From Eledone cirrhosa (taxonomy: Eukaryota), in NCBI GenBank assembly GCA_964016885.1, contig OZ024757.1, positions 30,938,001 through 31,002,000 on the forward strand: DNA of 64,000 bases, written 5' to 3'. The translations under genes were made by a program, and so were the position numbers. The notes below the pieces were generated by a model. That model saw only the letters and a list, made by a program, of their open reading frames with translations, was not told where the DNA came from and ran no database searches. How positions within the stretch are numbered: the first letter of the stretch is position 1; every line of letters starts with the position of its first letter. This document shows positions 6,557-50,256 of this stretch, piece by piece.

Positions 6557-6627
6557 TATTTTATTATGCACATTTCAAAAATAAATATCACCATGCAATA
6601 ACATTTGTGTTTTCATCAGATAAAATA
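6557..6627 (-). ncRNA. Type I hammerhead ribozyme, diverged homologue of 60872-60942
   Basis: Minus strand TATTTTAT-CTGATGA-aaacacaaatgttattgcatggtgatatttattttt-GAAA-TGTGCA-TA-ATAAAATA; flanks 6524-6843 align in reverse to 60571-60978. Confidence 0.7.
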
Positions 6628-11992: not shown

Positions 11993-12037
<45 letters not shown>

Positions 12038-12142
12038 CACACACACTCATAATACATATATTTATATATATATGAATATATACAATATATATATATATAC
12101 ATATATATATATATGAATATATATATATATACATACATATAT

Positions 12143-15100
12143 AATTAAGTTAAAGATGTACATCCATATATGTATACTGAAATACTAGTATGTATATGAA
12201 TACACACACGTATACATATGTAGATGTACCAAGTTTTTTTCACTGGTCACTTTACTGTGAGTGGCCAGCTATTCTGTATGTAAACACACAGACAAACCGG
12301 TTTTTAGAGTCATACTGGTTTTTGAGGAAACACCTTTCCTCTATTCTCCAGAAAGCCAGACAAGGAATATTGAACTAGTTTCGTTGTTGTTACAACTCAT
12401 CAGCAATATTTACCTATCTTCCGGCCTCTCTAGAGAATCGTAAAAGCACATATCGTTATATGCTTTTTCTATGAAAATTAGTAGTGGGCAGACTAATCCG
12501 CACAGAGTGTGAGTAAGTACCGGTTCAACGGAGACGATAAAAACAAATAACGAAACGAAATTAAATTTCGTTTCGTTTGTAACTCACTTTTGTATGACTG
12601 ACGCTTAAACAATTAAGTTAAAGATGTACATCCATATATGTATACTGAAATACTAGTATGTATATGAATACACACACGTATACATATGTAGATGTACCAA
12701 GTTTTTTTCACTGGTCACTTTACTGTGAGTGGCCAGCTATTCTGTATGTAAACACACAGACAAACCGGTTTTTAGAGTCATACTGGTTTTTGAGGAAACA
12801 CCTTTCCTCTATTCTCCAGAAAGCCAGACAAGGAATATTGAACTAGTTTCGTTGTTGTTACAACTCATCAGCAATATTTACCTATCTTCCGGCCTCTCTA
12901 GAGAATCGTAAAAGCACATATCGTTATATGCTTTTTCTATGAAAATTAGTAGTGGGCAGACTAATCCGCACAGAGTGTGAGTAAGTACCGGTTCAACGGA
13001 GACGATAAAAACAAATAACGAAACGAAATTAAATTTCGTTTCGTTTGTAACTCACTTTTGTATGACTGACGCTTAAACAATTAAGTTAAAGATGTACATC
13101 CATATATGTATACTGAAATACTAGTATGTATATGAATACACACACGTATACATATGTAGATGTACCAAGTTTTTTTCACTGGTCACTTTACTGTGAGTGG
13201 CCAGCTATTCTGTATGTAAACACACAGACAAACCGGTTTTTAGAGTCATACTGGTTTTTGAGGAAACACCTTTCCTCTATTCTCCAGAAAGCCAGACAAG
13301 GAATATTGAACTAGTTTCGTTGTTGTTACAACTCATCAGCAATATTTACCTATCTTCCGGCCTCTCTAGAGAATCGTAAAAGCACATATCGTTATATGCT
13401 TTTTCTATGAAAATTAGTAGTGGGCAGACTAATCCGCACAGAGTGTGAGTAAGTACCGGTTCAACGGAGACGATAAAAACAAATAACGAAACGAAATTAA
13501 ATTTCGTTTCGTTTGTAACTCACTTTTGTATGACTGACGCTTAAACAATTAAGTTAAAGATGTACATCCATATATGTATACTGAAATACTAGTATGTATA
13601 TGAATACACACACGTATACATATGTAGATGTACCAAGTTTTTTTCACTGGTCACTTTACTGTGAGTGGCCAGCTATTCTGTATGTAAACACACAGACAAA
13701 CCGGTTTTTAGAGTCATACTGGTTTTTGAGGAAACACCTTTCCTCTATTCTCCAGAAAGCCAGACAAGGAATATTGAACTAGTTTCGTTGTTGTTACAAC
13801 TCATCAGCAATATTTACCTATCTTCCGGCCTCTCTAGAGAATCGTAAAAGCACATATCGTTATATGCTTTTTCTATGAAAATTAGTAGTGGGCAGACTAA
13901 TCCGCACAGAGTGTGAGTAAGTACCGGTTCAACGGAGACGATAAAAACAAATAACGAAACGAAATTAAATTTCGTTTCGTTTGTAACTCACTTTTGTATG
14001 ACTGACGCTTAAACAATTAAGTTAAAGATGTACATCCATATATGTATACTGAAATACTAGTATGTATATGAATACACACACGTATACATATGTAGATGTA
14101 CCAAGTTTTTTTCACTGGTCACTTTACTGTGAGTGGCCAGCTATTCTGTATGTAAACACACAGACAAACCGGTTTTTAGAGTCATACTGGTTTTTGAGGA
14201 AACACCTTTCCTCTATTCTCCAGAAAGCCAGACAAGGAATATTGAACTAGTTTCGTTGTTGTTACAACTCATCAGCAATATTTACCTATCTTCCGGCCTC
14301 TCTAGAGAATCGTAAAAGCACATATCGTTATATGCTTTTTCTATGAAAATTAGTAGTGGGCAGACTAATCCGCACAGAGTGTGAGTAAGTACCGGTTCAA
14401 CGGAGACGATAAAAACAAATAACGAAACGAAATTAAATTTCGTTTCGTTTGTAACTCACTTTTGTATGACTGACGCTTAAACAATTAAGTTAAAGATGTA
14501 CATCCATATATGTATACTGAAATACTAGTATGTATATGAATACACACACGTATACATATGTAGATGTACCAAGTTTTTTTCACTGGTCACTTTACTGTGA
14601 GTGGCCAGCTATTCTGTATGTAAACACACAGACAAACCGGTTTTTAGAGTCATACTGGTTTTTGAGGAAACACCTTTCCTCTATTCTCCAGAAAGCCAGA
14701 CAAGGAATATTGAACTAGTTTCGTTGTTGTTACAACTCATCAGCAATATTTACCTATCTTCCGGCCTCTCTAGAGAATCGTAAAAGCACATATCGTTATA
14801 TGCTTTTTCTATGAAAATTAGTAGTGGGCAGACTAATCCGCACAGAGTGTGAGTAAGTACCGGTTCAACGGAGACGATAAAAACAAATAACGAAACGAAA
14901 TTAAATTTCGTTTCGTTTGTAACTCACTTTTGTATGACTGACGCTTAAACAATTAAGTTAAAGATGTACATCCATATATGTATACTGAAATACTAGTATG
15001 TATATGAATACACACACGTATACATATGTAGATGTACCAAGTTTTTTTCACTGGTCACTTTACTGTGAGTGGCCAGCTATTCTGTATGTAAACACACAGA

Positions 15101-18100
15101 CAAACCGGTTTTTAGAGTCATACTGGTTTTTGAGGAAACACCTTTCCTCTATTCTCCAGAAAGCCAGACAAGGAATATTGAACTAGTTTCGTTGTTGTTA
15201 CAACTCATCAGCAATATTTACCTATCTTCCGGCCTCTCTAGAGAATCGTAAAAGCACATATCGTTATATGCTTTTTCTATGAAAATTAGTAGTGGGCAGA
15301 CTAATCCGCACAGAGTGTGAGTAAGTACCGGTTCAACGGAGACGATAAAAACAAATAACGAAACGAAATTAAATTTCGTTTCGTTTGTAACTCACTTTTG
15401 TATGACTGACGCTTAAACAATTAAGTTAAAGATGTACATCCATATATGTATACTGAAATACTAGTATGTATATGAATACACACACGTATACATATGTAGA
15501 TGTACCAAGTTTTTTTCACTGGTCACTTTACTGTGAGTGGCCAGCTATTCTGTATGTAAACACACAGACAAACCGGTTTTTAGAGTCATACTGGTTTTTG
15601 AGGAAACACCTTTCCTCTATTCTCCAGAAAGCCAGACAAGGAATATTGAACTAGTTTCGTTGTTGTTACAACTCATCAGCAATATTTACCTATCTTCCGG
15701 CCTCTCTAGAGAATCGTAAAAGCACATATCGTTATATGCTTTTTCTATGAAAATTAGTAGTGGGCAGACTAATCCGCACAGAGTGTGAGTAAGTACCGGT
15801 TCAACGGAGACGATAAAAACAAATAACGAAACGAAATTAAATTTCGTTTCGTTTGTAACTCACTTTTGTATGACTGACGCTTAAACAATTAAGTTAAAGA
15901 TGTACATCCATATATGTATACTGAAATACTAGTATGTATATGAATACACACACGTATACATATGTAGATGTACCAAGTTTTTTTCACTGGTCACTTTACT
16001 GTGAGTGGCCAGCTATTCTGTATGTAAACACACAGACAAACCGGTTTTTAGAGTCATACTGGTTTTTGAGGAAACACCTTTCCTCTATTCTCCAGAAAGC
16101 CAGACAAGGAATATTGAACTAGTTTCGTTGTTGTTACAACTCATCAGCAATATTTACCTATCTTCCGGCCTCTCTAGAGAATCGTAAAAGCACATATCGT
16201 TATATGCTTTTTCTATGAAAATTAGTAGTGGGCAGACTAATCCGCACAGAGTGTGAGTAAGTACCGGTTCAACGGAGACGATAAAAACAAATAACGAAAC
16301 GAAATTAAATTTCGTTTCGTTTGTAACTCACTTTTGTATGACTGACGCTTAAACAATTAAGTTAAAGATGTACATCCATATATGTATACTGAAATACTAG
16401 TATGTATATGAATACACACACGTATACATATGTAGATGTACCAAGTTTTTTTCACTGGTCACTTTACTGTGAGTGGCCAGCTATTCTGTATGTAAACACA
16501 CAGACAAACCGGTTTTTAGAGTCATACTGGTTTTTGAGGAAACACCTTTCCTCTATTCTCCAGAAAGCCAGACAAGGAATATTGAACTAGTTTCGTTGTT
16601 GTTACAACTCATCAGCAATATTTACCTATCTTCCGGCCTCTCTAGAGAATCGTAAAAGCACATATCGTTATATGCTTTTTCTATGAAAATTAGTAGTGGG
16701 CAGACTAATCCGCACAGAGTGTGAGTAAGTACCGGTTCAACGGAGACGATAAAAACAAATAACGAAACGAAATTAAATTTCGTTTCGTTTGTAACTCACT
16801 TTTGTATGACTGACGCTTAAACAATTAAGTTAAAGATGTACATCCATATATGTATACTGAAATACTAGTATGTATATGAATACACACACGTATACATATG
16901 TAGATGTACCAAGTTTTTTTCACTGGTCACTTTACTGTGAGTGGCCAGCTATTCTGTATGTAAACACACAGACAAACCGGTTTTTAGAGTCATACTGGTT
17001 TTTGAGGAAACACCTTTCCTCTATTCTCCAGAAAGCCAGACAAGGAATATTGAACTAGTTTCGTTGTTGTTACAACTCATCAGCAATATTTACCTATCTT
17101 CCGGCCTCTCTAGAGAATCGTAAAAGCACATATCGTTATATGCTTTTTCTATGAAAATTAGTAGTGGGCAGACTAATCCGCACAGAGTGTGAGTAAGTAC
17201 CGGTTCAACGGAGACGATAAAAACAAATAACGAAACGAAATTAAATTTCGTTTCGTTTGTAACTCACTTTTGTATGACTGACGCTTAAACAATTAAGTTA
17301 AAGATGTACATCCATATATGTATACTGAAATACTAGTATGTATATGAATACACACACGTATACATATGTAGATGTACCAAGTTTTTTTCACTGGTCACTT
17401 TACTGTGAGTGGCCAGCTATTCTGTATGTAAACACACAGACAAACCGGTTTTTAGAGTCATACTGGTTTTTGAGGAAACACCTTTCCTCTATTCTCCAGA
17501 AAGCCAGACAAGGAATATTGAACTAGTTTCGTTGTTGTTACAACTCATCAGCAATATTTACCTATCTTCCGGCCTCTCTAGAGAATCGTAAAAGCACATA
17601 TCGTTATATGCTTTTTCTATGAAAATTAGTAGTGGGCAGACTAATCCGCACAGAGTGTGAGTAAGTACCGGTTCAACGGAGACGATAAAAACAAATAACG
17701 AAACGAAATTAAATTTCGTTTCGTTTGTAACTCACTTTTGTATGACTGACGCTTAAACAATTAAGTTAAAGATGTACATCCATATATGTATACTGAAATA
17801 CTAGTATGTATATGAATACACACACGTATACATATGTAGATGTACCAAGTTTTTTTCACTGGTCACTTTACTGTGAGTGGCCAGCTATTCTGTATGTAAA
17901 CACACAGACAAACCGGTTTTTAGAGTCATACTGGTTTTTGAGGAAACACCTTTCCTCTATTCTCCAGAAAGCCAGACAAGGAATATTGAACTAGTTTCGT
18001 TGTTGTTACAACTCATCAGCAATATTTACCTATCTTCCGGCCTCTCTAGAGAATCGTAAAAGCACATATCGTTATATGCTTTTTCTATGAAAATTAGTAG

Positions 18101-20358
18101 TGGGCAGACTAATCCGCACAGAGTGTGAGTAAGTACCGGTTCAACGGAGACGATAAAAACAAATAACGAAACGAAATTAAATTTCGTTTCGTTTGTAACT
18201 CACTTTTGTATGACTGACGCTTAAACAATTAAGTTAAAGATGTACATCCATATATGTATACTGAAATACTAGTATGTATATGAATACACACACGTATACA
18301 TATGTAGATGTACCAAGTTTTTTTCACTGGTCACTTTACTGTGAGTGGCCAGCTATTCTGTATGTAAACACACAGACAAACCGGTTTTTAGAGTCATACT
18401 GGTTTTTGAGGAAACACCTTTCCTCTATTCTCCAGAAAGCCAGACAAGGAATATTGAACTAGTTTCGTTGTTGTTACAACTCATCAGCAATATTTACCTA
18501 TCTTCCGGCCTCTCTAGAGAATCGTAAAAGCACATATCGTTATATGCTTTTTCTATGAAAATTAGTAGTGGGCAGACTAATCCGCACAGAGTGTGAGTAA
18601 GTACCGGTTCAACGGAGACGATAAAAACAAATAACGAAACGAAATTAAATTTCGTTTCGTTTGTAACTCACTTTTGTATGACTGACGCTTAAACAATTAA
18701 GTTAAAGATGTACATCCATATATGTATACTGAAATACTAGTATGTATATGAATACACACACGTATACATATGTAGATGTACCAAGTTTTTTTCACTGGTC
18801 ACTTTACTGTGAGTGGCCAGCTATTCTGTATGTAAACACACAGACAAACCGGTTTTTAGAGTCATACTGGTTTTTGAGGAAACACCTTTCCTCTATTCTC
18901 CAGAAAGCCAGACAAGGAATATTGAACTAGTTTCGTTGTTGTTACAACTCATCAGCAATATTTACCTATCTTCCGGCCTCTCTAGAGAATCGTAAAAGCA
19001 CATATCGTTATATGCTTTTTCTATGAAAATTAGTAGTGGGCAGACTAATCCGCACAGAGTGTGAGTAAGTACCGGTTCAACGGAGACGATAAAAACAAAT
19101 AACGAAACGAAATTAAATTTCGTTTCGTTTGTAACTCACTTTTGTATGACTGACGCTTAAACAATTAAGTTAAAGATGTACATCCATATATGTATACTGA
19201 AATACTAGTATGTATATGAATACACACACGTATACATATGTAGATGTACCAAGTTTTTTTCACTGGTCACTTTACTGTGAGTGGCCAGCTATTCTGTATG
19301 TAAACACACAGACAAACCGGTTTTTAGAGTCATACTGGTTTTTGAGGAAACACCTTTCCTCTATTCTCCAGAAAGCCAGACAAGGAATATTGAACTAGTT
19401 TCGTTGTTGTTACAACTCATCAGCAATATTTACCTATCTTCCGGCCTCTCTAGAGAATCGTAAAAGCACATATCGTTATATGCTTTTTCTATGAAAATTA
19501 GTAGTGGGCAGACTAATCCGCACAGAGTGTGAGTAAGTACCGGTTCAACGGAGACGATAAAAACAAATAACGAAACGAAATTAAATTTCGTTTCGTTTGT
19601 AACTCACTTTTGTATGACTGACGCTTAAACAATTAAGTTAAAGATGTACATCCATATATGTATACTGAAATACTAGTATGTATATGAATACACACACGTA
19701 TACATATGTAGATGTACCAAGTTTTTTTCACTGGTCACTTTACTGTGAGTGGCCAGCTATTCTGTATGTAAACACACAGACAAACCGGTTTTTAGAGTCA
19801 TACTGGTTTTTGAGGAAACACCTTTCCTCTATTCTCCAGAAAGCCAGACAAGGAATATTGAACTAGTTTCGTTGTTGTTACAACTCATCAGCAATATTTA
19901 CCTATCTTCCGGCCTCTCTAGAGAATCGTAAAAGCACATATCGTTATATGCTTTTTCTATGAAAATTAGTAGTGGGCAGACTAATCCGCACAGAGTGTGA
20001 GTAAGTACCGGTTCAACGGAGACGATAAAAACAAATAACGAAACGAAATTAAATTTCGTTTCGTTTGTAACTCACTTTTGTATGACTGACGCTTAAACAA
20101 TTAAGTTAAAGATGTACATCCATATATGTATACTGAAATACTAGTATGTATATGAATACACACACGTATACATATGTAGATGTACCAAGTTTTTTTCACT
20201 GGTCACTTTACTGTGAGTGGCCAGCTATTCTGTATGTAAACACACAGACAAACCGGTTTTTAGAGTCATACTGGTTTTTGAGGAAACACCTTTCCTCTAT
20301 TCTCCAGAAAGCCAGACAAGGAATATTGAACTAGTTTCGTTGTTGTTACAACTCATCA
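12143..20358 (-). mobile_element. Left arm of a 468-bp tandem array (~17.6 units) of a hammerhead-ribozyme retrozyme-like element; ribozyme on the minus strand
   Basis: Exact 468-bp periodicity (aattaagttaaag at 12143, 12611, ...; ORF track repeats every 468). Each unit contains the reverse complement of AATATTG-CTGATGA-GTTGT-AACA-ACAAC-GAAA-CTAGTT-CAATATT. Left end abuts a (TA)n tract. Confidence 0.9.
12366..12410 (-). ncRNA. Type I hammerhead ribozyme (representative left-arm copy; 17 intact copies up to 19854-19898)
   Basis: Plus strand aatattgaactagtttcgttgttgttacaactcatcagcaatatt is the exact reverse complement of the motif at 20503-20547. Confidence 0.9.
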
Positions 20359-23300
20359 TTCGTTATTTGTTTTTATCGTCTCCGTTGAACCGGTACTTAC
20401 TCACACTCTGTGCGGATTAGTCTGCCCACTACTAATTTTCATAGAAAAAGCATATAACGATATGTGCTTTTACGATTCTCTAGAGAGGCCGGAAGATAGG
20501 TAAATATTGCTGATGAGTTGTAACAACAACGAAACTAGTTCAATATTCCTTGTCTGGCTTTCTGGAGAATAGAGGAAAGGTGTTTCCTCAAAAACCAGTA
20601 TGACTCTAAAAACCGGTTTGTCTGTGTGTTTACATACAGAATAGCTGGCCACTCACAGTAAAGTGACCAGTGAAAAAAACTTGGTACATCTACATATGTA
20701 TACGTGTGTGTATTCATATACATACTAGTATTTCAGTATACATATATGGATGTACATCTTTAACTTAATTGTTTAAGCGTCAGTCATACAAAAGTGAGTT
20801 ACAAACGAAACGAAATTTAATTTCGTTTCGTTATTTGTTTTTATCGTCTCCGTTGAACCGGTACTTACTCACACTCTGTGCGGATTAGTCTGCCCACTAC
20901 TAATTTTCATAGAAAAAGCATATAACGATATGTGCTTTTACGATTCTCTAGAGAGGCCGGAAGATAGGTAAATATTGCTGATGAGTTGTAACAACAACGA
21001 AACTAGTTCAATATTCCTTGTCTGGCTTTCTGGAGAATAGAGGAAAGGTGTTTCCTCAAAAACCAGTATGACTCTAAAAACCGGTTTGTCTGTGTGTTTA
21101 CATACAGAATAGCTGGCCACTCACAGTAAAGTGACCAGTGAAAAAAACTTGGTACATCTACATATGTATACGTGTGTGTATTCATATACATACTAGTATT
21201 TCAGTATACATATATGGATGTACATCTTTAACTTAATTGTTTAAGCGTCAGTCATACAAAAGTGAGTTACAAACGAAACGAAATTTAATTTCGTTTCGTT
21301 ATTTGTTTTTATCGTCTCCGTTGAACCGGTACTTACTCACACTCTGTGCGGATTAGTCTGCCCACTACTAATTTTCATAGAAAAAGCATATAACGATATG
21401 TGCTTTTACGATTCTCTAGAGAGGCCGGAAGATAGGTAAATATTGCTGATGAGTTGTAACAACAACGAAACTAGTTCAATATTCCTTGTCTGGCTTTCTG
21501 GAGAATAGAGGAAAGGTGTTTCCTCAAAAACCAGTATGACTCTAAAAACCGGTTTGTCTGTGTGTTTACATACAGAATAGCTGGCCACTCACAGTAAAGT
21601 GACCAGTGAAAAAAACTTGGTACATCTACATATGTATACGTGTGTGTATTCATATACATACTAGTATTTCAGTATACATATATGGATGTACATCTTTAAC
21701 TTAATTGTTTAAGCGTCAGTCATACAAAAGTGAGTTACAAACGAAACGAAATTTAATTTCGTTTCGTTATTTGTTTTTATCGTCTCCGTTGAACCGGTAC
21801 TTACTCACACTCTGTGCGGATTAGTCTGCCCACTACTAATTTTCATAGAAAAAGCATATAACGATATGTGCTTTTACGATTCTCTAGAGAGGCCGGAAGA
21901 TAGGTAAATATTGCTGATGAGTTGTAACAACAACGAAACTAGTTCAATATTCCTTGTCTGGCTTTCTGGAGAATAGAGGAAAGGTGTTTCCTCAAAAACC
22001 AGTATGACTCTAAAAACCGGTTTGTCTGTGTGTTTACATACAGAATAGCTGGCCACTCACAGTAAAGTGACCAGTGAAAAAAACTTGGTACATCTACATA
22101 TGTATACGTGTGTGTATTCATATACATACTAGTATTTCAGTATACATATATGGATGTACATCTTTAACTTAATTGTTTAAGCGTCAGTCATACAAAAGTG
22201 AGTTACAAACGAAACGAAATTTAATTTCGTTTCGTTATTTGTTTTTATCGTCTCCGTTGAACCGGTACTTACTCACACTCTGTGCGGATTAGTCTGCCCA
22301 CTACTAATTTTCATAGAAAAAGCATATAACGATATGTGCTTTTACGATTCTCTAGAGAGGCCGGAAGATAGGTAAATATTGCTGATGAGTTGTAACAACA
22401 ACGAAACTAGTTCAATATTCCTTGTCTGGCTTTCTGGAGAATAGAGGAAAGGTGTTTCCTCAAAAACCAGTATGACTCTAAAAACCGGTTTGTCTGTGTG
22501 TTTACATACAGAATAGCTGGCCACTCACAGTAAAGTGACCAGTGAAAAAAACTTGGTACATCTACATATGTATACGTGTGTGTATTCATATACATACTAG
22601 TATTTCAGTATACATATATGGATGTACATCTTTAACTTAATTGTTTAAGCGTCAGTCATACAAAAGTGAGTTACAAACGAAACGAAATTTAATTTCGTTT
22701 CGTTATTTGTTTTTATCGTCTCCGTTGAACCGGTACTTACTCACACTCTGTGCGGATTAGTCTGCCCACTACTAATTTTCATAGAAAAAGCATATAACGA
22801 TATGTGCTTTTACGATTCTCTAGAGAGGCCGGAAGATAGGTAAATATTGCTGATGAGTTGTAACAACAACGAAACTAGTTCAATATTCCTTGTCTGGCTT
22901 TCTGGAGAATAGAGGAAAGGTGTTTCCTCAAAAACCAGTATGACTCTAAAAACCGGTTTGTCTGTGTGTTTACATACAGAATAGCTGGCCACTCACAGTA
23001 AAGTGACCAGTGAAAAAAACTTGGTACATCTACATATGTATACGTGTGTGTATTCATATACATACTAGTATTTCAGTATACATATATGGATGTACATCTT
23101 TAACTTAATTGTTTAAGCGTCAGTCATACAAAAGTGAGTTACAAACGAAACGAAATTTAATTTCGTTTCGTTATTTGTTTTTATCGTCTCCGTTGAACCG
23201 GTACTTACTCACACTCTGTGCGGATTAGTCTGCCCACTACTAATTTTCATAGAAAAAGCATATAACGATATGTGCTTTTACGATTCTCTAGAGAGGCCGG

Positions 23301-24114
23301 AAGATAGGTAAATATTGCTGATGAGTTGTAACAACAACGAAACTAGTTCAATATTCCTTGTCTGGCTTTCTGGAGAATAGAGGAAAGGTGTTTCCTCAAA
23401 AACCAGTATGACTCTAAAAACCGGTTTGTCTGTGTGTTTACATACAGAATAGCTGGCCACTCACAGTAAAGTGACCAGTGAAAAAAACTTGGTACATCTA
23501 CATATGTATACGTGTGTGTATTCATATACATACTAGTATTTCAGTATACATATATGGATGTACATCTTTAACTTAATTGTTTAAGCGTCAGTCATACAAA
23601 AGTGAGTTACAAACGAAACGAAATTTAATTTCGTTTCGTTATTTGTTTTTATCGTCTCCGTTGAACCGGTACTTACTCACACTCTGTGCGGATTAGTCTG
23701 CCCACTACTAATTTTCATAGAAAAAGCATATAACGATATGTGCTTTTACGATTCTCTAGAGAGGCCGGAAGATAGGTAAATATTGCTGATGAGTTGTAAC
23801 AACGAAACTAGTTCAATATTCCTTGTCTGGCTTTCTGGAGAATAGAGGAAAGGTGTTTCCTCAAAAACCAGTATGACTCTAAAAACCGGTTTGTCTGTGT
23901 GTTTACATACAGAATAGCTGGCCACTCACAGTAAAGTGACCAGTGAAAAAAACTTGGTACATCTACATATGTATACGTGTGTGTATTCATATACATACTA
24001 GTATTTCAGTATACATATATGGATGTACATCTTTAACTTAATTGTTTAAGCGTCAGTCATACAAAAGTGAGTTACAAACGAAACGAAATTTAATTTCGTT
24101 TCGTTATTTGTTTT
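20359..24114 (+). mobile_element. Right, inverted arm of the same 468-bp array (8 units + 15 nt); ribozyme on the plus strand
   Basis: Reverse complement of the left-arm unit from ttcgttatttg (20359) to ttcgttatttgtttt (24114), followed by a (TA)-rich tract. Last unit has a 3-nt (aac) deletion. Confidence 0.9.
20503..20547 (+). ncRNA. Type I hammerhead ribozyme (representative right-arm copy; repeats every 468 bp, 8 copies)
   Basis: Stem I AATATTG/CAATATT, core CTGATGA (20510-20516), stem II GTTGT/ACAAC with AACA loop, GAAA (20531-20534), palindromic minimal stem III ACTAGT, GUU triplet with predicted cut after 20540. Confidence 0.9.
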
Positions 24115-24159
24115 CATACATATATATATATATATATATTCATATATATATATATATGA

Positions 24160-24234
<75 letters not shown>

Positions 24235-24263
24235 TATATTCATATATATATATAAATATATTA

Positions 24264-24306
<43 letters not shown>

Positions 24307-24797
24307 TCATATATTCATATATTCATATATATATATAAATATATATATATAAATATATATATATAAATATATATATATATTATATATATATTCATATATT
24401 CATATATAATATATATATATATAAATATATAAGGTATATATATATATATATAAAATAGAGTGAGAGAGAATGGCAAAGGAACAATGTAGTGGACTGGACT
24501 GATTTAGTTATGGTGAAGATGGTGATGGCGGTGATGACTATGGTTAGTGGTGGTGGTGGTGGTGGTGGTGGCTAATATGGTGGTTATAGTTGTGACTAGT
24601 GAAGCACGGTTAATTTCATGGTTCAAATGCTGTTCACAGGAGAACAATTCAGTTGTATGTTTGTATATTTCACCATAAATAAACATCAGACTGGGGAGGA
24701 GAAGGGAGGGAAGGGGACGGGCATGGGTGAGATAAGGGCAAACTAAACAAAATATATTGTTCACTGATTCAAGGACAATGCTGTTCATTTAGGGAGA

Positions 24798-28104: not shown

Positions 28105-28910
28105 AACACACACACACATAGGCAGATTGTATGATGCCTGTATACGAACAGCAATGGTACATGGGCATTACGTGCAGAGGACCTGCGTAGACTGGAAAGG
28201 AACGAAGCATGCATGCTTCGTTGGATGTGTAATAGTAATATACGTGAACGGCAAAGCATAAATGAACTAAGTGAGACATTAGGAATAAGAGGGATCAGAT
28301 GCTGTTTACTTGAGAGAAGACTATGTTGGTATGGTCACGTGATGCGCATGAAAGATGACAGCTGCATAAAAAAGTGCAGGGCGATCAAAATTGATGGTAG
28401 TTACGGAGTAGGTAGACCCAGAAAAACCTGGGATCATCTGATAAATTCCGACCTCACACACTTACACCTCTCCAAGACAATGTCACTGGACCGAGATCTT
28501 TGGCGCTACGCAGTAATACAGAAGACCCGCCTTGCCTATGTGCAAAGCGAAACCTACAGTCAGTAGGCACCTCTTAACCAAATATACACCCCAATCCACT
28601 ACCCCTACCCTATCCTCCCACTCCCACCAACAGCACGAGAAAATGAGATCAAGATCGTGTAGGTGTCACGACAAAAAAAAAACACACACAGTTCACGCTG
28701 TAATGTGGCCGTGTAGGTAACACAGTAAAAAGTTCCCAGTTCCACACTGTAAATGTGGTTGATGTTAGGAAGGGCAGCCGTAGAAAACCTGCCAGATAGT
28801 GCTATATGAGCGAGACACGGTCACCCGACCAGCCTTGCCTCAAGTGGGACAACTCCCGTCTAACCCATGCTAGCGTGGAAAATGGACGTTAAATGAAGAT
28901 GATGATGATG
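28105..28910 (+). mobile_element. RTE-clade LINE 3' fragment (ORF C-terminus, 3' UTR, (gat)n tail)
   Basis: ORF 28213-28566 MLRWMC...RRLCWYGHVMRM...GRPRKTW is the typical post-RT C-terminus of RTE elements. Confidence 0.85.
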
Positions 28911-49767: not shown

Positions 49768-49819
<52 letters not shown>

Positions 49820-49821
<2 letters not shown>

Positions 49822-50165
49822 ATATTAATTCAAAATATTAATAAATATGTGATCAAATATATTTTATTATATATATTTCAGAGATACTGTGCTGTTTCCT
49901 CAGTACGTCCTCATCAGATAAAATAAATTGATGTCTGACATACCTCAACCGTGCTGATGGTTCAATTCCAGTCTTGGCAGAATTGATGATGTTGGTGCCA
50001 AGACTGGAATTGAACCATCAGCACAGTTGAGGTATGTCAGACATCAATTTATTTTATCTGATGAGGATGTACTGAGGAAACAGCACAGTATCTCTGAAAT
50101 ATGTATAATAAAATATATTTGATCACATGAATGTCTATATTTATTAATATTTTGAATTAATATTA
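49820..50165. mobile_element. Fold-back palindrome (~160-bp arms, 16-nt spacer) with a hammerhead in each arm (49860-49925 minus, 50050-50115 plus)
   Basis: Arms ...gtcttggca / tgccaagac...; right arm TATTTTAT-CTGATGA-ggatgtactg...cagtatctct-GAAA-TATGTA-TA-ATAAAATA. Confidence 0.75.
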
Positions 50166-50256
50166 ATAACTCCAGAAAACTTCTTTGTTGAGTGCTTCTA
50201 ATCTATTGTAAAACTATATTCATTGATTAATCAATGAACCTTGTTTAACTTTTGGT

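Follow-up and report, generated by a model that had tools for sequence, protein, structure and literature searches.

How a 12-kb array of nearly identical, ribozyme-bearing units came to be written into the genome of Eledone cirrhosa is the question raised by the locus studied here, which lies in a 64,000-nt stretch of contig OZ024757.1 (positions 30,938,001 to 31,002,000; the window).

Layout of the array and its ribozyme

Tandem Repeats Finder reported two 468-bp arrays in the window, at 12143-20358 and 20359-24114, and direct comparison revealed them to be reverse complements of one another. The whole array (12143-24114) is formed by two head-to-head arms, with 17.6 minus-strand and 8.0 plus-strand units, and the sense strands of both arms face outwards into (AT)n. 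The extent, the period of 468 and the total of ~25.6 units agree with the first-pass annotation, which had described a single tandem array; this holds for the repeat unit but not for the one continuous run, as the strand switches at 20358/20359. The near-zero divergence it had reported was also recovered: there are zero mismatches between units of the left arm, and a 3-nt deletion at 23804, in the right arm, is the sole difference. Complete hammerheads total 25, 17 on the minus strand (left arm) and 8 on the plus strand (right arm), and an 18th minus-strand copy is cut within its core. The motif and the predicted cut after 20540 were both located where the annotation had placed them. An 11-12-nt stretch of interrupted microsatellite is repeated on either side of the insertion, forming a target-site duplication. 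The unit has a GC content of ~0.36. Its longest ATG-initiated ORF on either strand encodes 62 aa, bearing out the earlier claim of no meaningful ORF; the unit is therefore non-coding, and lacks an RT and GIY-YIG ORF. Units are numbered from window position 20541 (nt 1), the base after the predicted cut, and the features are as follows.

12019..12142, no strand: left (AT)n microsatellite flank (the target); the target-site duplication has its left copy in the final 11 nt, 12132-12142
12143..20358, minus strand: arm B, 17.56 identical units read leftwards, with 17 complete hammerheads; the arm's outer boundary is unit nt 230 (site B) and its inner boundary unit nt 439, within a hammerhead core
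20358..20359, no strand: central head-to-head junction, blunt with zero inserted bases, joining unit nt 439 to nt 287
20359..24114, plus strand: arm A, 8.03 units with 8 hammerheads, starting at unit nt 287, outer end at nt 301 (site A)
20503..20547, plus strand: first plus-strand type I hammerhead; stem I, 20503-20509 with 20541-20547; CUGAUGA, 20510-20516; stem II, 20517-20530; GAAA, 20531-20534; palindromic helix III
20540, plus strand: predicted cut of this hammerhead, after the GUU ending here
20541..21008, plus strand: one cut-to-cut monomer of 468 nt, the predicted circular RNA
20770..20844, plus strand: 'tail' segment of roughly 70 nt, between site B (~20770-20775) and site A (~20841-20844)
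20874..20913, plus strand: hairpin, unit nt 334-373; three A-to-G changes (unit 338, 342, 343) mark the window haplotype
23786..23813, plus strand: last plus-strand hammerhead, with the 3-nt deletion in its stem II region at 23804
24115..24452, no strand: right (AT)n flank; 24115-24125 are the right copy of the target-site duplication

The hammerhead search suggested in the first-pass annotation gave a match to Rfam HH9 with E=1e-7, at 37.7 bits against a gathering score of 52; at the gathering threshold, Rfam returned zero matches in the window. Helix III is a palindrome with no space for a loop, and two hammerhead copies co-fold through it, so that in the modelled fold the ribozyme is complete only as a dimer. 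This loopless form is usual in metazoan and Penelope-type hammerheads, where the dimer is active and the monomer circle quiet, according to the accessible text of PMC4209133.

Alignment of 19 hammerhead copies from four subfamilies revealed an invariant core and a cut triplet of GUU, GUC or GUA in 18 of the 19. Stems I and II covary across these copies, with 84.8% of cells paired, a score reached by 0 of 500 shuffles in a test that can be inflated by relatedness of the copies; slid controls were all lower (≤45% paired). The sense strand of the unit folds with z=-9.5 relative to 100 shuffles and the antisense strand with z=-5.9, and the unit is strongly self-complementary, although a consensus fold of the whole unit is hampered by misalignment near site B. 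Each unit carries one hammerhead, on one polarity only. A transcript with this ribozyme would be expected to cleave itself and to yield a covalent circle.

Insertion ends across the families

Searching the same genome with the unit gave 237 unit matches from 39 of 263 candidates, and the dispersed near-identical arrays foreseen in the first-pass annotation were found. The 150 rows among the matches listed were grouped into 28 loci, all of which were fetched, giving 29 with the window. Exact junctions of site A with (AT)n numbered 2,002 genome-wide (control, 0), and the window family (family 1) has about 2,000 insertions. Family 2 is a sister family with a 472-nt unit, 69% identical to family 1, and equivalent A and B sites. 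Family 3 is older, with a 434-nt unit, 69% identity and 1,394 hammerhead pattern matches. Long arrays occur at C3 113.97 Mb (35 units) and in L194 (at least 20 units).

Family-1 arms end at unit nt 300-305 (site A) or 230-235 (site B), where (AT)n begins. Two outward ends were obtained at 22 of the 29 loci, and all 22 had one A and one B; six loci had one scored end, and L057 was excluded, its two ends lying in separate pieces. In family 2, two ends were scored at 8 of 20 fetched loci, again A+B in every case, and a further locus with unique flanks (L115) was A+B by eye. When ends facing outward and lying no more than 20 kb apart were paired over the first 131 Mb of C1, starting from the first 100 A ends listed and 46 B ends, the result was 30 A+B, 1 B+B and 0 A+A; 2 of the 30 A+B pairs were already among the 22. 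As two B+B insertions exist (L215, and L052/L110, a chimera of families 1 and 2), the pairing is a strong rule, not an absolute one. Either end type may sit left or right, arm lengths are uncorrelated (rho 0.15), and no length bias was observed between A and B arms (p=0.42). The use of each site once per insertion suggests that a single complex acts on a single RNA.

Some A/B pairs in C1 are merely 50 and 110 nt apart. The arms of L105 (unit 61-230 and 251-304) have no sequence in common, and the same is true of L214, so two primings are needed. Target duplications in interrupted flanks were detected in 10 of 31 insertions (shuffled mean 3.6, maximum 9 in 5,000). They are mostly 10-13 nt long, which would imply 3' overhangs able to prime at both ends. 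Microhomology at 14 central junctions was 1.64 nt versus 0.75 by chance (p=0.006), and 7 loci carry 10-24 inserted bases at the central joint, as expected for end joining of two cDNAs. Near-symmetric junctions were seen at 2 of 22 loci (L042 and L043).

Three further observations concern the ends. Six of 49 inner arm ends cluster at unit nt 116-121, where pausing or joining may be favoured. L057:827-905 contains an isolated tail piece (unit nt ~229-304) flanked by two (AT)n runs. At L110:3000-4410 (L052), family-1 sequence in one arm gives way to family-2 sequence, with the register kept, at a common 11-nt stretch near unit nt 288; the cause may be nested insertion or a switch of template from one circle to another.

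A candidate Penelope-like partner

Penelope-like candidates were sought by their GIY-YIG domain. The genome is rich in elements that combine RT, a Cys-rich linker and GIY-YIG at the C terminus, with 10,597 GIY-YIG candidates. One Neptune/Nematis-type family is our candidate partner, and several other Neptune-type families exist (L092-L095). Pfam RVT_1 and GIY-YIG domains were identified on a member of the candidate family (L103), and a CxxxxCxxC linker is present in the family. The family has a 4,734-nt tandem unit, and, among 146 scored hits, open 784-aa frames with identical scores number in the dozens. The copies run into (AT)n at ~+126-131 or +163-172 after their own hammerhead, ~40 nt apart. 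L098, a clear two-arm copy, has one of each end, and L214 is the other instance of A/B pairing in this family.

In L155 and L214, a family-3 retrozyme hammerhead is joined to the post-cut sequence of the candidate, within one base of both predicted cuts. These fusions involve family 3, not window family 1, which counts against the partner link, and a pattern search for the reciprocal Neptune-to-retrozyme junction gave 0 matches. At a third locus (L212), a family-1b arm faces a 2.5-kb truncated candidate copy in one (AT)n. We rejected L212 as proof of co-insertion on account of its ambiguous ages, the retrozyme units differing at 8/1,069 compared positions and the Neptune arm having 12 private changes in 1,158; it could represent two successive insertions.

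The unit and the candidate Neptune repeat showed no sequence similarity, and comparison with 48 GIY-YIG loci gave no homology beyond inserted retrozyme copies; this pLTR comparison covered the candidate family and the 48 loci, a minority of the genome's families. The hammerhead of young intact Neptune copies is off the consensus core (U3-A8; C in GAAA) and may be inactive. In L213 (G000:C5:17.088-17.097 Mb), a 436-aa ORF lies upstream of the 784-aa RT-EN frame and overlaps it at a U-UUU-UUA heptamer resembling a -1 frameshift site; canonical Penelope-like elements are described as single-ORF.

Template, mechanism and related systems

Substitutions private to one or a few loci were found to be fixed in all units there, in both arms where two exist, giving arms of a single haplotype; partly fixed substitutions common to both arms of one insertion were absent. 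Since new variants are fixed in every unit, each insertion was probably copied from one monomer, re-read many times. Among the 210 seams that span the cut site, 195 match exactly, 12 have a locus-fixed GUC triplet and 3 differ nearby, with no indel at the cut bond in any; 1 of 49 inner ends lies within 10 nt of the cut site, without a pile-up. A ligated circle would fit these data best, with precise template jumping or a homogeneous linear multimer also possible. The 35-unit array contains repeated multi-unit variant blocks, the product of later block duplication. Arrays can thus also grow after insertion, so that length alone is no measure of the number of rounds.

Template-borne variants show an excess of A-to-G changes, four of them in one hairpin (window 20874-20913; L048, L050, L056, L058, L059). 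A>G exceeded T>C by 8 to 1 among 22 variants carried by at least two units, and by 13 to 9 over all sites (p=0.25; two divergent pieces skipped). Each of the three haplotype-marking changes (unit 338, 342, 343) converts an A-U pair to G-U. The excess may hint at RNA editing, reverse-transcriptase error or selection for G-U pairs.

We propose that the array is probably one recent non-LTR retrozyme insertion, made by twin-primed rolling reverse transcription of a retrozyme circle. In the putative order of events, arrays would be transcribed, and neighbouring hammerheads would pair as dimers and release 468-nt monomers, to be ligated to circles; a lone circle, unable to close helix III, would be stable. 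A Neptune-type RT/GIY-YIG protein would then nick both (AT)n strands ~10-12 nt apart, followed by priming of cDNA from both DNA 3' ends on the same RNA, at site A and site B, 70 nt apart. Each enzyme would circle the template a variable number of times. Finally, the cDNA ends would be joined via short microhomology or templated inserts and filled in, leaving head-to-head arms in a target duplication. The first-pass annotation had proposed rolling reverse transcription with mobilisation by Penelope-like elements. Locus-fixed variants and Penelope-type ends favour the former, corrected to two priming events per insertion instead of one, and the signature of the arm ends agrees with the latter.

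In the accessible text of PMC11167929, both strands of the target are cut and extended by a purified Penelope-like protein, which initiates at two positions inside the RNA; these positions bound the tail. In the same in vitro system, the start site is alike on both strands and hammerhead cleavage is unnecessary, which counts against our model. We give an even chance to a dedicated two-primer integration of Penelope-like elements and their retrozyme parasites, in which an enzyme dimer on two fixed sites of one ribozyme-made circle primes both ends of a staggered cut and rolls twice, with no separate second-strand priming. If true, a single step would account for the inverted repeat, the tail on one side and the tandem copies, and the present arrays would be the cleanest genomic record of Penelope-like integration.

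Twin priming could also have used long uncleaved linear transcripts, or linear monomers with end-to-end template jumps, with no covalent circle. Uncleaved RNA is the main in vitro substrate in the accessible text of PMC11167929, source arrays of 35 and at least 20 units exist, and the L155 and L214 fusions could be template jumps. However, private variants in every unit of both arms demand a one-unit bottleneck and then re-multimerisation, partly fixed variants show no ordered sharing between arms, and the 210 seams have no indel scars or end pile-up at the cut site, making a linear template unlikely. We consider it very unlikely that a single priming was followed by fold-back self-copying of the cDNA, with the second end made by the endonuclease at the other site (a route drawn from the accessible text of PMC3846280 and PMC8557442). 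The marked self-complementarity of the unit and the two nearly symmetric junctions (L042, L043) would suit it, but the arms of L105 and L214 each hold sequence absent from the other, the C1 pairs just 50 and 110 nt apart argue against it, and both sites are reverse-transcription starts in the one purified system (PMC11167929).

Expansion of some arrays after insertion would also be compatible with a satellite that spreads as DNA, through extrachromosomal DNA circles or recombination, and whose hammerhead is a relic. This is highly improbable given the fixed strand-specific ends at ~2,000 (AT)n sites, the target duplications, and the conserved core, NUH cut triplet and covarying stems across families 69% identical. 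Still less credible is an assembly artefact in the array or its inversion: the absence of any difference over 17 units could raise this suspicion, and the exact unit count rests on the assembly, but like anatomy with different junctions and flanks recurs at dozens of loci in two families. In addition, run X1 has contigs in which sites A and B adjoin TA repeats, with loose ends at 20844 and 20775, respectively, though X1 may be the assembled sample. A separate question within twin-primed copying of a circle is whether the family-1 enzyme comes from a Penelope-like family other than the one in the fusions, to which we assign somewhat less than an even chance. The further Neptune-type families, the 10,597 GIY-YIG candidates and the lack of repeat homology between unit and candidate favour another source; against it, all three retrozyme/Penelope chimeras seen (L155, L214 and L212) involve one family, which has many intact identical copies.

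In L1 twin priming, cDNA is primed from both strands of the target, and the resulting 5' inversion is joined through microhomology. The retrozyme differs in lacking a poly(A) tail, in having two fixed, internal priming sites that may lie on either side, and in arms each longer than a unit. Viroids and viroid-like replicons have no genomic DNA form and carry ribozymes in both polarities, whereas here the arrays are genomic, with thousands of DNA copies, and the hammerhead occupies a single strand. The label 'viroid-like' in the first-pass annotation is apt for shape only. The likeness to hammerhead viroids and viroid-like satellite RNAs, in the accessible text of PMC11722881, lies in size, a branched stable fold and hammerhead processing of multimers, the last predicted here.

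By every DNA feature tested, the window element is a non-LTR retrozyme; its reading as a young retrozyme, as in the first-pass annotation, is supported by dispersed near-identical arrays, locus-fixed variants and covarying hammerhead stems. With the metazoan retrozymes of coral, mussel and axolotl/newt (satellite 2), as described in the accessible parts of PMC7229834 and bioRxiv 10.64898/2026.07.22.740005, it shares a non-coding tandem unit, one type I hammerhead, GC <50%, dispersed arrays, target duplication >4 nt and co-occurrence with Penelope-like elements. Its unit is not unusually long, as had been suggested: 468 nt barely exceeds the 150-450 bp of the former source and falls within the 51-972 bp of the latter. 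Published retrozymes are head-to-tail repeats, whereas most insertions here are two-armed with paired ends. Inverted arms, fixed priming sites and partner fusions are absent from the accessible text of both sources, and 'inverted' and 'head-to-head' have 0 occurrences in that of PMC7229834.

EN+ Penelope-like elements (Poseidon PAc, PMC11167929; Adineta Penelope, PMC3846280; Neptune/Naiad, PMC8557442; all from accessible text) resemble the retrozyme in their inverted 5'-truncated copy, a tail at one end only, AT-rich or (TA)n targets, and internal priming downstream of a dimer-type hammerhead. Their insertions combine an inverted 5' copy with duplications of 8-10 nt and, at one end, a tail of 30-40 nt (PMC8557442, PMC3846280). 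The retrozyme differs in having no ORF, a tail of ~70 nt versus 30-40 and arms that are both whole-unit multimers; homology between it and the repeat of the single partner candidate compared was not detectable.

Penelope-like mobilisation and circular templates have been proposed for retrozymes (PMC7229834; bioRxiv 10.64898/2026.07.22.740005), on the basis of co-occurrence and hammerhead similarity, as has more-than-unit copying of circles (PMC4209133). The origin of Penelope-like inverted repeats and tail is called undefined in the accessible text of PMC8557442. The present loci add insertion-level evidence on both questions, namely start sites used in pairs, copying over several rounds in each of the two arms, and fusions to one particular intact family. 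Elements of this type are already known; what is new is the anatomy of the insertions and the partner fusions, as no description of paired two-site, two-arm or twin-primed retrozyme insertions was found in the literature, mostly open-access and supplements aside (Fig. S9 of PMC7229834; the 2026 preprint). A 468-nt RNA, an (AT)n target and the candidate protein make up a minimal system in which the mechanism is directly testable, and a compact enzyme writing circular-RNA concatemers into a defined repeat may interest genome engineers.

Contigs from runs X4, X5 and X6, with three other organism labels and studies, read across the seam between units with high identity; they could come from close relatives, horizontal transfer or mixed samples, and contigs do not distinguish a circle from a tandem array. 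Summed depth is very high in X1, and the kind of all six unit-bearing runs is unrecorded, none being listed as RNA, so the depth has no bearing on expression. Elsewhere in the window, a 143-aa reading frame at 28135-28566 resembles the C-terminus of an RTE-type LINE. Further hammerhead-like motifs occur at 6619 (-), 60880 (+), 49644 (+), 5959 (-), 27926 (-), 59907 (-) and 62559 (+); these seven come from three or more additional dispersed families, and several of them end in (AT)n. A short head-to-head pair from an unrelated hammerhead family lies at 49800-50250 (cores at 49917, minus strand, and 50058, plus strand), with both ends in (AT)n and one arm ~90 nt longer, the inverted-plus-tail signature.
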